The notes: generated by a model from the sequence alone, not told the origin. DNA of 6,869 nucleotides from Candidatus Odinarchaeota archaeon (GCA_038826135.1 JAWBON010000062.1:1-6869); one strand, 5' to 3'; counted from the first letter of the stretch, positions 1-6,869 are shown. Program-made: numbers and translations.

Positions 1-1308
1 GAAGATGATAGAATAGTCGATGTTGGAAAATACAACGAGCTAAAAAACAAGTATCAAAGCTATGATAAAATTGACTGTAAAAATAAGATCATCATGCCGC
101 CGTTCATAAACTGTCATACACACGCTTCCATGACTCTGTTAAGAGGATACGCTGACGATCTACCGTTATTCGAGTGGTTGACTAAATGGATTTTCCCAAT
201 TGAGAAAAATCTCACTCCAAGCGATATTTACTTGGGAACAAAACTAGCTGTTGTAGAGAGTGCTTTATCAGGTGTTTCATGTCTAAATACTATGTACTAC
301 TTTATGGATATGGAAGCTGAAGCTATTTCCCAAGCTGGTTTAAGGGGGGTAGTCGGCCATGTATGCTTCTCGAATAATAAGCGTCAAGACAGCTCAATAA
401 CTTTTAATCTAGTTAAAAAATGGCATAACTCTAAGGATGGGCTTATACGTGTTAGTGTTGACCCGCATTCAATCTACACAGTCGACCCTGTATATTTAAA
501 AGAACTCTACCTGCTTAAAGAGGAGCTTAACAATAAATACGGGTCGCCTACCGCACCTATACACTGGCATATACACACGGCGGAAACCAGCGATGAAATG
601 GCTAAAATGAGAGAAGCCTTCGCCTCACACGAGGATACAGAGGTTAAAGAGCTAGTTAACAATCACTATGAAGGCGTATTCGACTATCTTAATCATTTAA
701 ATGTTTTAGACTCTGAAGTTACAGCAGCCCACTGCGTTCACCTTACAAGTAAAGATATCGAAGTAATCAGTAAAAAATCCGTTAAAGTTGTTCACAACCC
801 TGTTAGTAATCTAAAACTAGCCTCCGGGATAAGTCCTGTAACCACGCTTTTAAAAAATAAGGTTAACGTCTCCTTGGGTACAGACGGACCGTGTTCTAAT
901 AATAGTTTAGACATGTTCGAGACTGTTAAACTCACAGCCCTCCTTCATAAAGGAGTGAATTTAAATCCGACAATATTACCTGCTCAAACAGTGATTAGAA
1001 TGGCTACGTTCGACGCTGCTAAAACACTCGGATGGAGCAGTGAAATAGGCAGCGTTGAGAAAGGTAAAAAAGCCGATATCTTGATCGTGGATTTATCTAA
1101 ACCCCACGCGACACCGTTATACAATGAGTATAGTCATCTAGTTTACGCATTAAAATCAAGCGATGTGGAAAGCTTAATAGTTAACGGCCGTTTCATAGTT
1201 GAGAACAGAGTTATGAAAACAGTAAACGTTGAAGAAGTTATTGTTAAAGTAGCTAAATGGGTTGAAAACAAGTTAGCTGATAAATCGCTAACAGTTAAAG
1301 ATAAATAG
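1..1308 (+). CDS. mtaD: Amidohydrolase, MTA/SAH/5'-deoxyadenosine deaminase family (MtaD/DadD-like), 5'-truncated at the window edge
   Basis: Frame 1 is open from base 1 (EDDRIVDVGKYNELKNKYQSYDKIDCKNKIIMPPFINCHTH...), so the ATG at 94 is internal. Motifs: metal-binding NCHTH, subfamily motif LLRGYADDLPLFEWL...FPIE, DPHSIYT, HIHTAET, AHCVH, HNPVSNLKLASG, LGTDGPCSNNSLDMF. The exact substrate is not determinable from sequence. Confidence 0.87.
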   Translation, partial: EDDRIVDVGKYNELKNKYQSYDKIDCKNKIIMPPFINCHTHASMTLLRGYADDLPLFEWLTKWIFPIEKNLTPSDIYLGTKLAVVESALSGVSCLNTMYYFMDMEAEAISQAGLRGVVGHVCFSNNKRQDSSITFNLVKKWHNSKDGLIRVSVDPHSIYTVDPVYLKELYLLKEELNNKYGSPTAPIHWHIHTAETSDEMAKMREAFASHEDTEVKELVNNHYEGVFDYLNHLNVLDSEVTAAHCVHLTSKDIEVISKKSVKVVHNPVSNLKLASGISPVTTLLKNKVNVSLGTDGPCSNNSLDMFETVKLTALLHKGVNLNPTILPAQTVIRMATFDAAKTLGWSSEIGSVEKGKKADILIVDLSKPHATPLYNEYSHLVYALKSSDVESLIVNGRFIVENRVMKTVNVEEVIVKVAKWVENKLADKSLTVKDK

Positions 1309-1322
1309 TTAAAACTTATAGA
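1309..1322 (+). promoter_or_regulatory. Candidate archaeal BRE/TATA promoter for ahcY (TTAAAA-CTTATA)
   Basis: An A-rich BRE-like stretch is followed by CTTATA, about 25 nt upstream of the putative RBS at 1344. Motif match only. Confidence 0.4.
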
Positions 1323-1343
1323 ATTACCGGATAATCCAACTAT

Positions 1344-1348
1344 AGGTG
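1344..1348 (+). promoter_or_regulatory. Shine-Dalgarno-like site AGGTG for ahcY
   Basis: AGGTG lies 6 nt before the ATG at 1355 and is complementary to the archaeal 16S anti-SD. This favours ATG 1355 over GTG 1346. Confidence 0.6.
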
Positions 1349-1354
1349 TCTAAA

Positions 1355-2614
1355 ATGGTGGAGTACGAGATAAAAAAACCGGAGTTAGCTGGTCAAGGCA
1401 AGCTAACTATTGAATGGACTGAAAATCACATGCCAGTTTTAAATCTAATAAAGAAAAGATTCCAGGATGAAAAACCTTTAAAAGGATACAGGATCGCAGC
1501 GTGTCTCCACGTGACTAAGGAGACCGCTGTTTTAGTAAAAACGCTTAAAGCTGGAGGTGCTGAAGTAGCCTTATGTGCTTCTAATCCTCTATCAACCCAG
1601 GATGATGTAGCTGCAGCTTTAATTGAAGAAGGTATTAATGTATTCGCTTGGAGAGATGAGAGTAAAGACGATTATTACCGTCTTATGAACAGAGTTTTAG
1701 ATTTCCAACCCAATATTACTTTAGACGATGGCGGCGACCTAGTTAACACAGTCCACTCATCCCGCCGAGAATTGCTTGGAAACATTATAGGAGGATGCGA
1801 GGAGACAACAACTGGTGTAATCAGGCTTAGAATGATGGCTAAAGATAAAGTTCTCAAATACCCGATGATCGCCGTCAATGATACACCTACAAAATGGGAT
1901 TTCGATAATGTTTACGGAACAGGTCAGAGTTCAATAGACGGAATTCTAAGAGCGACTAGCATATTACTTGCTGGTAAAAACTTCGTCGTAGCCGGTTACG
2001 GACACTGTGGCAGGGGTGTCGCTTCAAGAGCTAGGGGAATGGGCGCGCACGTTATAATAACAGAAATAGATCCTGTTAAATCTCTGAGAGCGTTAATGGA
2101 CGGATACCGTGTTATGACAATGGAGGAGGCTGTGAAGATAGGGGACATATTCATAACTGCAACAGGTAACACAAGTGTTATCAGAATCGAGCATATGGAG
2201 AAGATGAAGGATGGAGCGGTTGTTTGTAATACAGGGCATTTCAACGTGGAGATAGATGTCGCCGACCTTGAGAAAACAGCTAAACGTAAAAGAAGGATCA
2301 GACCGAATGTTGACGAGTATCTTTTACCGAATAATCGGAGAATATATCTTATCGCTGAAGGGCGGTTAGTTAACCTGGCGGCCGCTGAAGGTCATCCTAG
2401 TGAAGTTATGGACATGTCTTTCTCAGATCAATCTCTATCAGTAGAATATATTATAAAGCATGGTAGAGAGATGAAGCCGGATGTGTATAATGTTCCTTTA
2501 GAAATAGATGAACAGGTGGCCAGACTTAAACTAGAGTCTTTAAATGTTAGGATAGATAAACTTACCGAGAAACAGATAGCTTATCTTTCAAGCTATCATC
2601 TCGGAACAGAGTGA
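1355..2614 (+). CDS. ahcY: Adenosylhomocysteinase (S-adenosyl-L-homocysteine hydrolase), archaeal type, 419 aa
   Basis: Motifs MPVL, CLHVTKET, SNPLSTQDDVAAAL, LDDGGDL, GCEETTTG, AVND, FDNVYGTGQS, Rossmann VAGYGHCGRG, NTGHFNVEI, EGRLVNLAAAEGHP.EVMDMSF. The start is placed at ATG 1355 because the ORF-track GTG at 1346 overlaps the RBS. Confidence 0.96.
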   Translation: MVEYEIKKPELAGQGKLTIEWTENHMPVLNLIKKRFQDEKPLKGYRIAACLHVTKETAVLVKTLKAGGAEVALCASNPLSTQDDVAAALIEEGINVFAWRDESKDDYYRLMNRVLDFQPNITLDDGGDLVNTVHSSRRELLGNIIGGCEETTTGVIRLRMMAKDKVLKYPMIAVNDTPTKWDFDNVYGTGQSSIDGILRATSILLAGKNFVVAGYGHCGRGVASRARGMGAHVIITEIDPVKSLRALMDGYRVMTMEEAVKIGDIFITATGNTSVIRIEHMEKMKDGAVVCNTGHFNVEIDVADLEKTAKRKRRIRPNVDEYLLPNNRRIYLIAEGRLVNLAAAEGHPSEVMDMSFSDQSLSVEYIIKHGREMKPDVYNVPLEIDEQVARLKLESLNVRIDKLTEKQIAYLSSYHLGTE

Positions 2615-2616
2615 AC

Positions 2617-2620
2617 GGTG
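2617..2620 (+). promoter_or_regulatory. RBS (GGTG) for the methyltransferase gene, suggesting co-transcription with ahcY
   Basis: There is a 13-nt gap after the ahcY stop, and GGTG lies 7 nt before ATG 2628. Confidence 0.5.
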
Positions 2621-2627
2621 TTTTATC

Positions 2628-2948
2628 ATGTACGGCGTATCTGACATATATCAAATCGCTGACAAATATGATTTTAAATTCTCAATGGTGGAATTTTTAC
2701 TCGACACGTACGGTCCTAAAAAAGGTACTGCAATCCTCGCAGCTCTTAGAACACCAGTAAAACGATACGCTCTAAGAGTTAACACTCTTAAAACCACAAG
2801 CGGCGAAGTTATCGATAAACTTTTAGTTAATGGAATAGAAGCAGAGGTGGATAAGAGCTTTAACGATGTAATCTACATTCAAGTTAAAGGGCCATACAGC
2901 ATTCGAGAATCGGAGAAGATCATTATAGCTGATAAATTTCGCCGCTGA
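2628..2948 (+). CDS. N-terminal fragment of the NSUN6/RsmB-like methyltransferase (zero-frame product, 106 aa)
   Basis: Contains LRTPVKRYALRVNTLKT, the typical RsmB/NOP2-family N-terminal RVNTLK motif. It ends ADKF-RR-stop just as the PUA domain begins. Confidence 0.75.
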   Translation: MYGVSDIYQIADKYDFKFSMVEFLLDTYGPKKGTAILAALRTPVKRYALRVNTLKTTSGEVIDKLLVNGIEAEVDKSFNDVIYIQVKGPYSIRESEKIIIADKFRR

Positions 2949-2955
2949 AAGCGTT

Positions 2956-3828
2956 ATGATGGGTGCTAACCTTTATTCTAAAGGAGTGGTTAAGATAGAG
3001 GATTCGAAAGCCGGGGATGATATTACTATTGTACCGCCAAGAGGCGGACCTGTAGCGTATGGTTTACAAGAGCTTGACGCTGATAAAATATTCAGTAAAC
3101 GTGAAGGATTGGCTGTTAACGTTTTAGAATCGGTTTACAAGATGCCGAGGCTTAGAGAACTTTCACTATACAGTGAAGGCTTATTATTCGATCAATCATT
3201 TCCATCAATAATAGTCGGACATATTCTATCTCCTAGTGAAGTCGACCATGTTATCGACATGTGCGCTGCTCCGGGTGGTAAGACCACACACATAGCCCAG
3301 CTTATGAATAATAAAGGGAAAATCTTAGCCTGCGATCGTTCATATAATCGTTTAAAAACCCTGCACGAACACGCTATTAGACTGGGTGTTAGAAACATAA
3401 ATTTATTGAACACGGATGTTAGGTTGATAAGTGACGAGTACACGTTAAAATTTGATAAGGTTATTCTAGACCCTCCTTGTACGAGTCTAGGTCATAGACC
3501 GAAGATTTACGATTCTGTTGAAATAAAACGCTCTCAAGCCCTTTCAAACTATCAAATTCAGCTTTTCAAAACAGCCTCTAAGATAATTAAGCCAGGAGGA
3601 TACTTAGTTTACAGTACATGCACTATCCCCTACTACGAGAATGAGTTAATTGTAAAATTCGCTTGTGAAAACCTCGGTTTCCGAATACAGGAACCTCCTT
3701 TTAAAATCGCCTTAAAAGGAGAATTCTCTGAAGATTACCCGGATTTATCTATGTGCTACCGATTCTATCCTGATAAGCAGGATACACCCGGCTTTTTTAT
3801 AGCGTTATTAAAAAAAATGGTTGACTAA
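2956..3828 (+). CDS. PUA plus catalytic fragment of the NSUN6/RsmB-like m5C methyltransferase (+1 frame, open from 2929)
   Basis: PUA segment GANLYSKGV...GDDITI, then DQSFPS, SAM-binding DMCAAPGGKTTHIAQLM, motif IV ILDPPC (3469-3480), motif VI YSTCT (3610-3624), ENE and C-terminal PGFFIALLKK. No RBS precedes ATG 2956. Confidence 0.85.
   Translation: MMGANLYSKGVVKIEDSKAGDDITIVPPRGGPVAYGLQELDADKIFSKREGLAVNVLESVYKMPRLRELSLYSEGLLFDQSFPSIIVGHILSPSEVDHVIDMCAAPGGKTTHIAQLMNNKGKILACDRSYNRLKTLHEHAIRLGVRNINLLNTDVRLISDEYTLKFDKVILDPPCTSLGHRPKIYDSVEIKRSQALSNYQIQLFKTASKIIKPGGYLVYSTCTIPYYENELIVKFACENLGFRIQEPPFKIALKGEFSEDYPDLSMCYRFYPDKQDTPGFFIALLKKMVD
3810..3817 (-). terminator. Candidate oligo(T)8 archaeal terminator for gfcR
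   Basis: A8 on the + strand reads as T8 on the - strand, 7 nt after the gfcR TAG. It is embedded in the methyltransferase codons TTA-AAA-AAA-ATG. Confidence 0.45.
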
Positions 3829-4457
3829 CCACGGGTTAACGGCAAAACCTTTATTAAACTTTTAACAGGTATACCTGTAACCGCGTCAACCCCCTTCTTA
3901 TCTATTAAAATCACAGCGCCCACTATCTCAGCCGCGCATTCTTTAGCGAACTCCCCTATTATTTTTATTCGCGCACCTGTGGTTAGAACATCGTCAACTA
4001 ATAGAACTTTTTTATTTTTGATCTCGGAGAAGCTCGACTCCTCTATTACAGTTTCATAGCATTTATCCCCTTCAGTTACATGTTGCTGTCTTAGTAAAGC
4101 TAAAGGCTTACCTAACTCTCTGGCGACTATAAGTGCTATAGGCCCGCCGTCTACATCTACACCCGCAACTATATCCGGTTCTTGGAAGACGCCTTTTTCA
4201 ATGTTCTCCATAGCTAGATCTGACAGCATTAAACCTGCGTATTCAACTCTGATGAAGCTTGAACCTATCTGGCTCCAATCAGCGTAAACGTCCACAGGCT
4301 CCGGCGGCGCTTTAGCTAGTACACCCTTCTTCGCATGCATCTTCAACCAGGCAGCTGTATCCAACTGAACATTTAAGCGATTAGCTATTTCCTCCGTAGT
4401 TAACCCTTTATCAACCATCTCTTTTGTTTTCGAAATCAATTCCTCCAAGTTTCTCAA
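3825..4457 (-). CDS. gfcR: HTH plus phosphoribosyltransferase-fold protein (orotate PRTase-like PRK02277 / GfcR-type transcriptional regulator), 210 aa
   Basis: N-terminal MRNLEELISK...KGLTTEEIANRLNVQLDTAAWL helix-turn-helix, family motif DVYADWSQIGSS, PRPP-binding loop VLLVDDVLTTG, and C-terminal AVILIDKKG...GIPVKSLI. TTG start with a strong AGGAGGA RBS. Confidence 0.85.
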   Translation of the reverse strand: MRNLEELISKTKEMVDKGLTTEEIANRLNVQLDTAAWLKMHAKKGVLAKAPPEPVDVYADWSQIGSSFIRVEYAGLMLSDLAMENIEKGVFQEPDIVAGVDVDGGPIALIVARELGKPLALLRQQHVTEGDKCYETVIEESSFSEIKNKKVLLVDDVLTTGARIKIIGEFAKECAAEIVGAVILIDKKGVDAVTGIPVKSLIKVLPLTRG

Positions 4458-4464
4458 ACACTCT

Positions 4465-4471
4465 TCCTCCT
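4465..4471 (-). promoter_or_regulatory. Shine-Dalgarno AGGAGGA for gfcR
   Basis: The - strand reads AGGAGGA-AGAGTGT-TTG (7-nt spacer). Confidence 0.75.
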
Positions 4472-4503
4472 AAACTATCAGTTAACCCTCAACCCTATTA
4501 CTT

Positions 4504-4525
4504 GTTTAAGATTTTAATCTTGAAC
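4504..4525. promoter_or_regulatory. 22-bp imperfect palindrome (GTTTAAGATT-TT-AATCTTGAAC) overlapping the candidate gfcR BRE/TATA
   Basis: The arms match at 9 of 10 positions. The - strand reads ATTAAAAT-CTTAAAC, resembling BRE-TATA, 47-68 nt upstream of the gfcR start. Confidence 0.5.
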
Positions 4526-4561
4526 GTTTATTTTATCATTACATTCTTATTTAACTATCTA

Positions 4562-5251
4562 TTAAAATCTGTTATCATACTTAAAACCGTACTCGCCTAT
4601 AAGCGGTACAAACGCTACACCGCCGCGGTTAATCTGGTTCACTCTCCCATTAATTTTCTCCACGACTATTAAATCCTGCCATAAGTGTAACCCCCCTACA
4701 GGGATCACCATTCTACCCGGATCTTTTAACTGCTCTATTAGTGGTGGCGGAATACCCGGAGATGCGGCTGTAACCAGTATTCTGTCAAAAGGGGCTTTTT
4801 CAGGAAGACCCTTGCTGCCGTCACGGTGGAATACTCTAACCCATTTACTGTAACCTGTTCTGATTATATTTTTTAAAGCAAATCTTGCAAGAGGCCTTAT
4901 TCTCTCAATAGTGTATACGCAGCCTCCATCACCGGATTTAACAAGTTCAGCGCATAAAGCTGCGTGATAACCGCTTCCCGTGCCTATTTCAAGAACTTTC
5001 GATCCTTTTGAAAGCTTAAGCTCTTCTAACATCATTAAAACCATGTGAATCGCAGATATAGTTTGCCCCCATCCTATAGGCAGAGGCATATCCTCATAAG
5101 CTCTACCTCTCAATTTTTTAGGAAGAAACTCCTCCCTAGGAACATTTAAGAAAGCCTCTTTCACCCGCTTTGACTTAACAAACCCCGTTCTGACTAGGCG
5201 TTCTAGAACAATTAAACGTTCATTTGAAAGCCCATCATTAACCAAATTCAA
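4562..5251 (-). CDS. pcm: Protein-L-isoaspartate O-methyltransferase (PIMT)
   Basis: Motifs AFLNVPREEF, AYEDMPLPIGWGQTISAIHMV, VLEIGTGSGYHAA, VYTIER, DGSKGLPEKAPFDRILVTAA, LIEQLKDPGRMVIPVG, VAFVPLIGEYG. TTG start at 5251 or 5245; an in-frame stop lies at 5267-5269. Confidence 0.95.
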   Translation of the reverse strand: MNLVNDGLSNERLIVLERLVRTGFVKSKRVKEAFLNVPREEFLPKKLRGRAYEDMPLPIGWGQTISAIHMVLMMLEELKLSKGSKVLEIGTGSGYHAALCAELVKSGDGGCVYTIERIRPLARFALKNIIRTGYSKWVRVFHRDGSKGLPEKAPFDRILVTAASPGIPPPLIEQLKDPGRMVIPVGGLHLWQDLIVVEKINGRVNQINRGGVAFVPLIGEYGFKYDNRF

Positions 5252-5263
5252 ACAACCATCCGA

Positions 5264-5295
5264 GTTTTAAACAGGATTTAATAAATGTTTAAAAC
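5264..5295. repeat. Perfect 10-bp inverted repeat GTTTTAAACA-N12-TGTTTAAAAC in the pcm promoter region, with AACCATCC direct repeats at 5254-5261 and 5293-5300
   Basis: Read directly from the sequence. The spacer contains TTTATTAAAT on the - strand, which is TATA-like at about the right distance from the pcm start. Confidence 0.6.
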
Positions 5296-5322
5296 CATCC
5301 TCAACTAATAATACTATCAACC

Positions 5323-5334
5323 AGTTAATTAACT
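5323..5334. promoter_or_regulatory. Perfect 12-bp palindrome AGTTAATTAACT in the middle of the pcm/ThDP-enzyme divergent region
   Basis: The sequence is its own reverse complement. Its function is unknown. Confidence 0.35.
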
Positions 5335-5372
5335 TCATTACTGATAACCGCGACTTAAACTAGCCTCTATTG

Positions 5373-5380
5373 CTATAAAT
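5373..5380 (+). promoter_or_regulatory. Candidate TATA box (CTATAAAT) for the ThDP-enzyme gene
   Basis: TATAAAT lies 23-29 nt upstream of TTG 5403. An alternative is CTTAAAC at 5354-5360. Confidence 0.4.
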
Positions 5381-5402
5381 ATTTTAAACGAGTGTGAATG
5401 AC

Positions 5403-6869
5403 TTGTCTAAAAGAGTGGCTGATATAATAGCCAGTCAACTTGAAGAAATAGGTGTTAAATATATTTTCGGAATACCAGGTCACACGAATCTGGATATTAT
5501 TGACTCTATCCGTGTTAACGGGAATCTGAAGTTTATTCTCTTCCGACACGAGGAGACGGCTGCTTTAGCAGCCTCCGCGTACGCTAAACTAACCGGTCTG
5601 CTAGGAGTATGCACGTCCATCGCCGGGCCGGGTGCTACTAATCTGTTAACAGGATTATATGATGCTAAAATGGATAGAGCCCCCGTGTTAGCATTAACAG
5701 GTCAGGTTGAACCTCAATTTCTAGGCACGCATACTCTTCAAGAGATTGATTTGAAAGCCTTGTTTGAATCCGTCTCGTATTTTAATAAGACTATTACAAC
5801 CCCCCAGGAAGCCGCGGAAATGGTTGTTTTAGCCGCTAAACATGCTATACTGGGCAGAGGGGTTTCAACTTTGAGCATACCCACTAATATTCAAAGAAGC
5901 CCGTCAACGAGTAAGATAATTCCGTTCTCTAAACGTATAGCAGATTATAAGATAAAACCCCCCGACTATTTGATAGATGAAGCTGTTAAAATTATTAATA
6001 AAGCGGTTAAACCCGTAATAATAGCGGGTTGGGGTGCTAGAAACGCTACCGGTCTTATACTAAGTTTAGCGGAGAAAATAGGCGCTCCAATAGCCACTAC
6101 TTTTAGAGCTAAAGGCATTATTTCAGAGTATCATCCATTATCTTTAGGAGTGTTAGGGAGTGTTGGTACCAGGCTTGCAAGAGAGGTTGTTCAAAACTCG
6201 GATTTATTAATTGTACTCGGCTCCTCATACTCAAAGCAAACTGGGATACCCATGAATATTAGAACAATCCAAATAGACTTCGACCCGATAAACATAGGTA
6301 AACGTTTCCCGGTTGAACTTGGAGTTTACGGGAGCGTTGAAGAAACATTACCTGGTATACTTGAAAAAGTTCAGTCTAAAACAATAGGTGAAGTTGAAAA
6401 TATAATACGTAGTATGAAAGCGGATTGGGATAATATTTTAAAAAACGATTTTAAAACCGCTAATAAACCTATCCATCCTGCTAAAATTCTTTCAACACTT
6501 CAATTATTAGCGGATAAAAACGCCATTATATCAATAGATGTTGGAGATAACTCTTGGTGGTTCGGTAGACATTTTAAAATGGTTGACACTCAGCGGTTAC
6601 TAATATCCGGGTACCTTGGAGCTATGGGCTTCGGCTTAGCTGCGGGAATAGCATCTCAGATAGCATATCCTGATAGGCAGTGCATAGTTATTACAGGGGA
6701 TGGGGCTTTCTCCATGGTGATGGCTGATTTCACAACAGCAGTTAAATACGATCTTCCTATTAAAGTCATAGTATTCAATAATAAAGAGCTTTCAATGATA
6801 AGACACGAGCAAGCTGAAGCTAGTCTCCCAAAATTCGGTGTAGAGCTTTTAAACCCGGACTTCGGATCC
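5403..6869 (+). CDS. Thiamine-diphosphate-dependent enzyme, pyruvate oxidase/acetolactate synthase-like family, 3'-truncated (489 codons in the window; absent from the ORF track)
   Basis: Manual translation shows no stops: MSKRVADIIASQLEEIGVKYIFGIPG..., RHEETAA (catalytic Glu), AGPGATNLLTGLYDAKMDRAPVLALTGQV, FAD-domain IAGWGA / TTFRAKG / IQIDFDP, DVGDNSWWFGRHF, SGYLGAMGFG, and the ThDP motif GDGAFSM...FNN (6696-6782). The upstream in-frame stop is at 5385-5387; TTG 5403 follows GAGTGTGA (GTG 5394 and GTG 5415 are alternatives). Confidence 0.9.
   Translation, partial: MSKRVADIIASQLEEIGVKYIFGIPGHTNLDIIDSIRVNGNLKFILFRHEETAALAASAYAKLTGLLGVCTSIAGPGATNLLTGLYDAKMDRAPVLALTGQVEPQFLGTHTLQEIDLKALFESVSYFNKTITTPQEAAEMVVLAAKHAILGRGVSTLSIPTNIQRSPSTSKIIPFSKRIADYKIKPPDYLIDEAVKIINKAVKPVIIAGWGARNATGLILSLAEKIGAPIATTFRAKGIISEYHPLSLGVLGSVGTRLAREVVQNSDLLIVLGSSYSKQTGIPMNIRTIQIDFDPINIGKRFPVELGVYGSVEETLPGILEKVQSKTIGEVENIIRSMKADWDNILKNDFKTANKPIHPAKILSTLQLLADKNAIISIDVGDNSWWFGRHFKMVDTQRLLISGYLGAMGFGLAAGIASQIAYPDRQCIVITGDGAFSMVMADFTTAVKYDLPIKVIVFNNKELSMIRHEQAEASLPKFGVELLNPDFGS

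Follow-up and report, generated by a model that had tools for sequence, protein, structure and literature searches.

A candidate programmed +1 ribosomal frameshift in the NSUN6-type tRNA methyltransferase gene of Odinarchaeia

Which genes are known to be read through a shift of frame at a phenylalanine codon followed by a CGN arginine codon, and is any of them a cellular gene of an archaeon? The influenza A PA-X +1 site is UCC_UUU_CGU (PMC3498833), and plant amalgaviruses use UUU_CGN +1 frameshift sites (PMC5052127). A TTT-CGC +1 frameshift has been predicted in the tail-assembly chaperone genes of the HF1-group haloarchaeal viruses (PMC7230728). The fucA1 gene of Saccharolobus solfataricus, encoding an alpha-L-fucosidase, uses a programmed -1 frameshift that has been experimentally proven (PMC1616953; reviewed in PMC8211752). 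That 2021 review lists the -1 event in fucA1, in one Saccharolobus strain, as the only one demonstrated among cellular archaeal genes, and +1 frameshifting in Archaea as suggested for viruses only (PMC8211752). Our full-text searches found no literature linking Odinarchaeota or Odinarchaeum with frameshifting.

The window analysed here is the whole of contig C62 (6869 bp) of a Candidatus Odinarchaeota archaeon metagenome-assembled genome (MAG) of 1.26 Mb in 105 contigs, with about 40% G+C. From ATG 2628 the 0 frame of an NSUN6-like gene reads into GCT GAT AAA TTT CGC CGC TGA (TTT at 2937-2939, CGC at 2940-2942 and 2943-2945, TGA at 2946-2948) and yields a product of 106 residues with the C-terminus ADKFRR. 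In the +1 frame, TAG 2926-2928 is followed by CTG ATA AAT TTC GCC GCT GAA AGC GTT ATG, and the frame then stays open until TAA 3826-3828. The original prediction had described this frame pattern at 2929-2958, and it was confirmed as read, including the TAG that closes the +1 frame upstream. We put the probability at about 80% that the NSUN6-type gene of Odinarchaeia specifies a single 399-residue enzyme made by programmed +1 ribosomal frameshifting at UUU CGC. The elements of the gene in the window are as follows.

2628..2939, plus strand: 0-frame part, Met1-Phe104, which comprises the ferredoxin-like domain at the N-terminus and strand 1 of the PUA domain (ending IIIADKF)
2926..2928, plus strand: TAG of the +1 frame, which together with TGA 2946-2948 limits any frame change to 2929-2945
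2931..2942, plus strand: invariant 12-nt block GAT AAA TTT CGC, the candidate shift site, with UUU 2937-2939 (P site), CGC 2940-2942 (A site) and UUC 2938-2940
2940..2948, plus strand: 0-frame continuation CGC CGC TGA, where unshifted ribosomes would stop to give a 106-aa product
2941..3828, plus strand: +1-frame part from Ala105 onward, 295 codons followed by the stop TAA 3826-3828, with the rest of the PUA domain and the RsmB/F SAM-dependent m5C methyltransferase domain
2956..2958, plus strand: +1-frame ATG, at which the rival reading would re-initiate; it codes for a conserved hydrophobic residue and is missing in L006, L040 and L042

At its far end, the TAA of the NSUN6-like gene overlaps the end of a convergent phosphoribosyltransferase ORF (3825-4457, minus strand), and there is no intergenic room for terminators.

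The two frames encode parts of one recognizable protein. Pfam identifies an RsmF/B ferredoxin-like domain in the N part, and a PUA domain (from profile position 9) and Methyltr_RsmB-F (1.2e-43) in the C part. The best structure match is 5ZVD, the NSun6 of Pyrococcus horikoshii, and the two pieces from the window cover consecutive stretches of this one solved protein: residues 19-93 of the N part align to 5ZVD residues 8-82, and residues 3-299 of the C part to residues 95-384 (E 1.5e-69). The +1 frame carries the SAM motif DMCAAPGGKT and both catalytic cysteines, in DPPCT (motif IV, PC) and STCT (motif VI, TC), and the columns of all three motifs are invariant in alignment A2. Further stops or indels in the NSUN6-like gene were sought in 14 sequences and none was found, in agreement with the original prediction of an NSUN6-like gene that keeps its catalytic motifs and has no other lesions. 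With the domain order ferredoxin-like, PUA and RsmB/F class I methyltransferase, and with full-length similarity to NSun6, the window gene is, as judged from its sequence, an archaeal NSUN6-type tRNA (cytosine-C5) methyltransferase, for which m5C72 activity is predicted. The P. horikoshii enzyme (PH1991; 5ZVD; PMC6393295) has the same domain order, the catalytic cysteines are common to both, and the unsplit Odinarchaeal relative matches it over its full length (E 2.9e-92). However, PH1991 is encoded in one frame and the Odinarchaeal gene in two, and the activity and tRNA range of the Odinarchaeal protein are predicted only. There is no second PUA-bearing NSUN copy in the Odinarchaeia genomes examined; the other RsmB/F paralogue in these genomes is a protein of 319 aa without a PUA domain.

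A single extra T is also what a mistake in sequencing or assembly, or recent inactivation of the gene to a pseudogene, would leave behind, because inserting one T into AAA TTC GCC would yield the pattern seen in the window. The original prediction gave recoding no better odds than an assembly error or a recent mutation, a judgment that the orthologs overturn in favour of recoding. A database search assigns the lineage to Odinarchaeia, an Asgard class represented in the collection by seven species genomes from two families, one of them a closed chromosome of 1,418,269 bp. By tblastn and codon printing, all seven encode the N part in one frame and the C part in another, with the switch at GAT AAA TTT CGC. 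The three other species of the window's genus, the closed chromosome among them, all have the split form, as does the second family, and in the seventh genome (G004) the gene is broken over two contigs with the junction still present. The same +1 change occurs in seven further metagenome contigs (labels L038-L044, L046) at 45-93% protein identity. The extra T, which the original prediction had proposed to seek in orthologs, is therefore present in 14 independently assembled sequences from two families, closed genome included, despite saturated synonymous divergence, and contigs from three separate studies of the window's own strain span the site without an indel. Since both halves are also under strong purifying selection and carry no other lesion, error or recent inactivation is hardly credible.

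More widely, a search for relatives found that the nearest genomes have an open frame of about 298 aa for the C part, and that more distant Asgard archaea have a single frame of about 400 aa; a related-locus search of genome contigs returned distant Asgard relatives only. A metagenome scan with a 21-nt site pattern gave 21 matches, only one of which (L122) lies in this gene, the others being chance. Gene order around the locus is class-wide (window 1-6869; L037-L046): an amidohydrolase gene, ahcY (S-adenosylhomocysteine hydrolase) and the NSUN6-like gene are followed on the opposite strand by phosphoribosyltransferase and PCMT genes, and then by a TPP enzyme gene. Because this conserved order puts the NSUN6-like gene after that of S-adenosylhomocysteine hydrolase, a SAM-dependent methyltransferase comes directly after the enzyme by which its inhibitory product is cleared. 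About 2 kb from the two-frame gene, the second family has a gene for a Trm5/TYW2-type methyltransferase (tRNA G37 modification; L043:5304-5867).

How has a gene in two frames evolved? Pairwise Nei-Gojobori estimates of dN/dS are 0.06-0.26 for both halves, with 0.06-0.26 in the 0-frame part and 0.07-0.11 in the +1-frame part. Within the genus dS is about 1 or more and synonymous sites are saturated, so that the extra base has outlived the saturation of silent sites. The 12 nt GATAAATTTCGC are invariant in the 13 aligned sequences and in G004 (14 in all), and the unsplit relatives vary at the codons of this block. The substitutions on either side have a clear phase. Fused two-frame sequences were built by script for the relatives, and among the 13 aligned sequences the 30 codons before the site have 20, 13 and 27 variable sites at codon positions 1, 2 and 3 in the phase of the 0 frame, and the 30 codons after it have 17, 13 and 29 in the phase of the +1 frame. 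This conserved phase switch confines the frame change to AAA-TTT-C. The 15 nt that follow the site differ solely at third positions of the +1 frame and, in the window's genus, are located past the 0-frame stop: GCC GCT, GCA GCT or GCA GCA is succeeded by GAA AGY GTN, differences that are synonymous only in +1. Read in the 0 frame, the same bases give RR*, RS* or RSRKRD with a later stop, and this tail is not conserved. The tandem CGC CGC before a stop, to which attention had been drawn in the window, is present there but is not general, the second family having CGC AGC AGA at the site and its 0-frame stop 16-20 codons later. A pseudogene was rejected on the dN/dS of 0.06-0.26 and on the failure of lesions to accumulate in 14 sequences. 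Both halves are, on these substitution patterns, evidently functional, each read in its own frame.

Two functional halves might also be two genes. In an ancient gene fission, the 106-aa N fragment would assemble with a C fragment whose translation starts by re-initiation or at a non-canonical codon such as the ATA in the site. Gene callers annotate two ORFs in every lineage, and all public annotations examined give two truncated proteins, one of about 106 aa and the other of 288-297 aa, in place of what is probably a single 399-aa enzyme. Most lineages do have an ATG, GTG or TTG 4-6 codons past the site, and the ATA is conserved in the +1 frame as part of GAT AAA and is the NCBI start in L040. 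In that sequence (L040:1966-2859), NCBI starts the C-terminal ORF at this ATA inside the shift site, and there is no ATG, GTG or TTG for 106 codons. The distribution of start codons nevertheless speaks against fission, since the first canonical start comes only after 10 codons in L042, 27 in L006 and 106 in L040, and the skipped peptide is conserved in these three lineages despite the absent start codons. In the window's genus, moreover, the codons between the 0-frame stop and any possible start evolve as +1 coding sequence. Re-initiation at ATG 2956, 7 nt after the stop, had been offered as a third option by the original prediction and fails for the same reason, the ATG not being conserved; the accompanying remark that it has no ribosome-binding site is borne out, no SD-like motif being found upstream of it in the window sequence. 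A conserved independent start with a ribosome-binding signal was not found for the downstream ORF.

The position of the break within the protein is a further obstacle to fission. In a model of P0008, the unsplit relative (pLDDT 95.8), the junction F104/A105 is flanked by strand 98-102 and helix 104-110, both in the PUA domain, which Pfam places at residues 99-168. With the junction inside the PUA domain, fission would cut the first strand off a compact domain. The lack of conservation of the 0-frame tail past the site, and the working one-frame gene that a single-base deletion produced in L037, are likewise hard to reconcile with two separate proteins. Taken with the start codons, these points leave fission improbable, the most serious rival to frameshifting though it is.

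The L037 lineage deserves separate mention. Its protein P0008 is 59% identical, is encoded in the same synteny and is specified by a single 399-codon frame with GAT AAA TTC GCA GCT GAA at the junction. A maximum-likelihood tree with other Asgard sequences as its root nests L037 among the split forms, with support of 95/94 for its grouping with L038 and L040 and of 100/100 within a 9-row clade. An AU test rejects the split forms as one clade without L037 (delta lnL 117, p 1e-5), the group having been named after the tree was seen. The simplest history would have the T gained once, in the ancestor of the class, and lost once afterwards, in L037. The junction ADKF-AAESV of this single-frame protein is exactly the product that a slip from UUU to UUC predicts. 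That +1 reading restores a conserved ADKF-AAESV had been claimed from the window, and L037 codes for exactly this junction in one frame.

Under programmed frameshifting, the ribosome would translate 104 codons in the 0 frame and arrive with UUU in the P site, paired to tRNA-Phe(GAA), and with an empty A site at CGC, a rare arginine codon that would be decoded slowly. The tRNA-Phe would then re-pair one base on with UUC, a full Watson-Crick match replacing the G-U wobble, and GCC (Ala) would be read next, giving ADKF-AAESV and the remainder of the enzyme. Ribosomes that do not slip would read two more codons and release a 106-residue fragment. We infer the slip itself, as well as its efficiency and any regulatory use. 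The locus has overlapping 0 and +1 ORFs, a P-site tRNA able to re-pair, a rare A-site CGN codon and a conserved site, as in a UUU_CGN +1 frameshift. UUU is the only codon in the permitted stretch with cognate +1 re-pairing, and UUU C is invariant. The equation of a UUU-to-UUC slip, with CGN in the A site, with an established motif was well founded, as the site matches published UUU_CGN +1 sites (PMC3498833, PMC5052127). No sense codon is rarer than CGC in long ORFs of the window's MAG, G000 (2.86 per 1000; 982 of 342,766 codons), and in the closed relative G002 it ranks as the fourth rarest. It had been called uncommon, with about four other in-frame occurrences in the window; the rarity holds, and the count is five others among about 2060 codons.

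The sequence alone sets the location of the frame change and not its chemistry, and a non-standard event could in principle take the place of the slip: quadruplet decoding of UUUC or CGCC in one step, -2 slippage, removal of a base at the RNA level or a micro-intron. Each meets specific difficulties. Only one tRNA-Phe(GAA) gene was found, and its ordinary 7-nt anticodon loop, CUGAAGA, argues against quadruplet decoding; reading CGCC as a quadruplet would moreover insert Arg at a position that is Ala in all relatives, and the last base of the quadruplet is C in some sequences and A in others. A -2 slip would leave the tRNA without re-pairing (AAU) and would lengthen the protein by a residue missing from the relatives. 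Polymerase slippage calls for a homopolymer of about 6 or more, and the A3 and T3 at the site are too short. A tRNA-type intron would be marked by a helix with two 3-nt bulges and by covariation, but neither a helix nor a bulge-helix-bulge surrounds the site, and an intron of at least 10 nt would delete conserved, translated codons. Events of this kind are very unlikely, and re-pairing of tRNA-Phe from UUU to UUC is the reading that we prefer.

What would slow the ribosome at CGC? No conserved downstream RNA structure was detected at the site, where the consensus fold has -3.67 kcal/mol without a supported helix and the single-sequence z-score is -0.26, and no conserved upstream SD-like stimulator was seen in the alignment. 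We know of no UUU_CGN site that needs a stimulatory RNA structure. The possibility that CGC has no decoder was rejected, since a cognate tRNA-Arg(GCG) gene exists and CGC is rare but decodable. ARAGORN and Rfam give only the Arg tRNAs TCT and CCT; blastn with these and an acceptor-stem scan found TCG, CCG and GCG. The tRNA-Arg(GCG) and tRNA-Arg(CCG) genes have two introns each, the first in the anticodon loop and the second in the T loop, and such genes are missed by both ARAGORN and Rfam RF00005 (E <= 0.001). The tRNA-Arg(TCG) is mistaken by ARAGORN for Pro(cgg) or SeC(tca), and standard tools yield 31-35 tRNAs per genome here. The two-intron tRNA-Arg loci are the following.

G002 (L068), 421610-421726, plus strand: two-intron tRNA-Arg
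G002 (L098), 1028303-1028411, plus strand: two-intron tRNA-Arg
G000, C15:5973-6077: two-intron tRNA-Arg

The site may be a regulated sensor and not a tolerated indel, the level of NSUN6 being set by the speed of CGC decoding through charged, mature tRNA-Arg(GCG). The speed of CGC decoding would then depend on the supply of a tRNA from which two introns must be removed. We offer this only as a tentative extension of the frameshifting model, and it is rather doubtful.

Several other lines were followed and abandoned. Avoidance of TTT-CGN across the genome, as a sign of a shift-prone motif, is weak and goes only slightly past the general NNT-CGN bias. In-frame TTT-CGN stands at 0.34 of expectation in G000, where TTT is the most depleted preceding codon, beside 0.66 for NNT-CGN and 0.37 for TTA-CGN, and at 0.52 in G002. 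A separate dicodon, GTA-CGN, was seen in long ORFs 9 times against 98.9 expected in G002 and 30 times against 76 in G000. A missing wyosine pathway for tRNA-Phe was rejected, Taw1 being present in all seven genomes. Autoregulation through m5C72 on tRNA-Phe or tRNA-Arg(GCG) gained no support: both have A73, and PhNSun6 accepts U73 or G73 (PMC6393295). The closed genome G002 has no candidate other than this gene for a TTTCG site with a two-frame signature, and a second candidate in G000, at C1:6931, proved to be a chance ORF overlapping a membrane-protein gene.

The mechanism is known, and the instance is new: a cellular gene, in Asgard archaea, conserved across a class. Recoding of the +1 kind has not yet been demonstrated for any cellular archaeal gene. 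Odinarchaeal NSUN6 is a candidate, a housekeeping tRNA-modification gene in which an entire Asgard class would have preserved a +1 site over a very long period. It offers a compact and testable system for asking whether archaeal ribosomes answer the same +1 signal as eukaryotic ones. If the reading is true, Archaea would have their first +1 frameshift in a cellular gene that extends over a whole class, with the UUU_CGN signal that works on eukaryotic ribosomes, and it would point to a susceptibility to UUU_CGN that is common to archaeal and eukaryotic ribosomes.

The proposed event can be set within a wider family of +1 shifts. The Ty1 site CUU AGG C employs the rare tRNA for AGG as a pause, and the bacterial prfB site CUU UGA C employs a stop codon and an internal SD sequence. 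In these, as in other yeast 'hungry codon' sites and as proposed here, the tRNA in the P site slips +1 during a delay in filling the A site; Ty1 and prfB differ from the Odinarchaeal site in their slippery codons and pause signals, and no conserved SD-like stimulator is present in Odinarchaeia. The resemblance to PA-X and the amalgaviruses is more specific and comprises re-pairing of tRNA-Phe from UUU to UUC, a rare CGN arginine codon in the A site and no evident downstream structure. Those, however, are eukaryotic RNA viruses translated by 80S ribosomes, whereas the Odinarchaeal gene is a cellular one of an archaeon, and the codon in the E site would be AAA in Odinarchaeia, as against UCC or ACU in PA-X and the amalgaviruses. 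In addition, the PA-X frameshift gives a minor extra product, whereas the shifted product in Odinarchaeia is predicted to be the only full-length enzyme. The HF1-group viruses have in common with Odinarchaeia a TTT-CGC in a perfectly conserved block, archaeal ribosomes, and support that in both is from comparative sequence only. The HF1 motif belongs to a viral gene pair with two alternative products, and TTT is the rare codon in that high-GC halophile; the Odinarchaeal one belongs to a chromosomal housekeeping gene, and in this low-GC Asgard archaeon it is CGC that is rare. The arrangement is also reminiscent of fucA1, likewise a cellular archaeal enzyme gene in two ORFs, with a full-length protein obtained via recoding and rare codons beside the site. 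There the shift is -1, at an A-AAA-AAT heptamer with a putative stem-loop in one species, whereas the shift proposed for the Odinarchaeal candidate would be +1 and class-wide.
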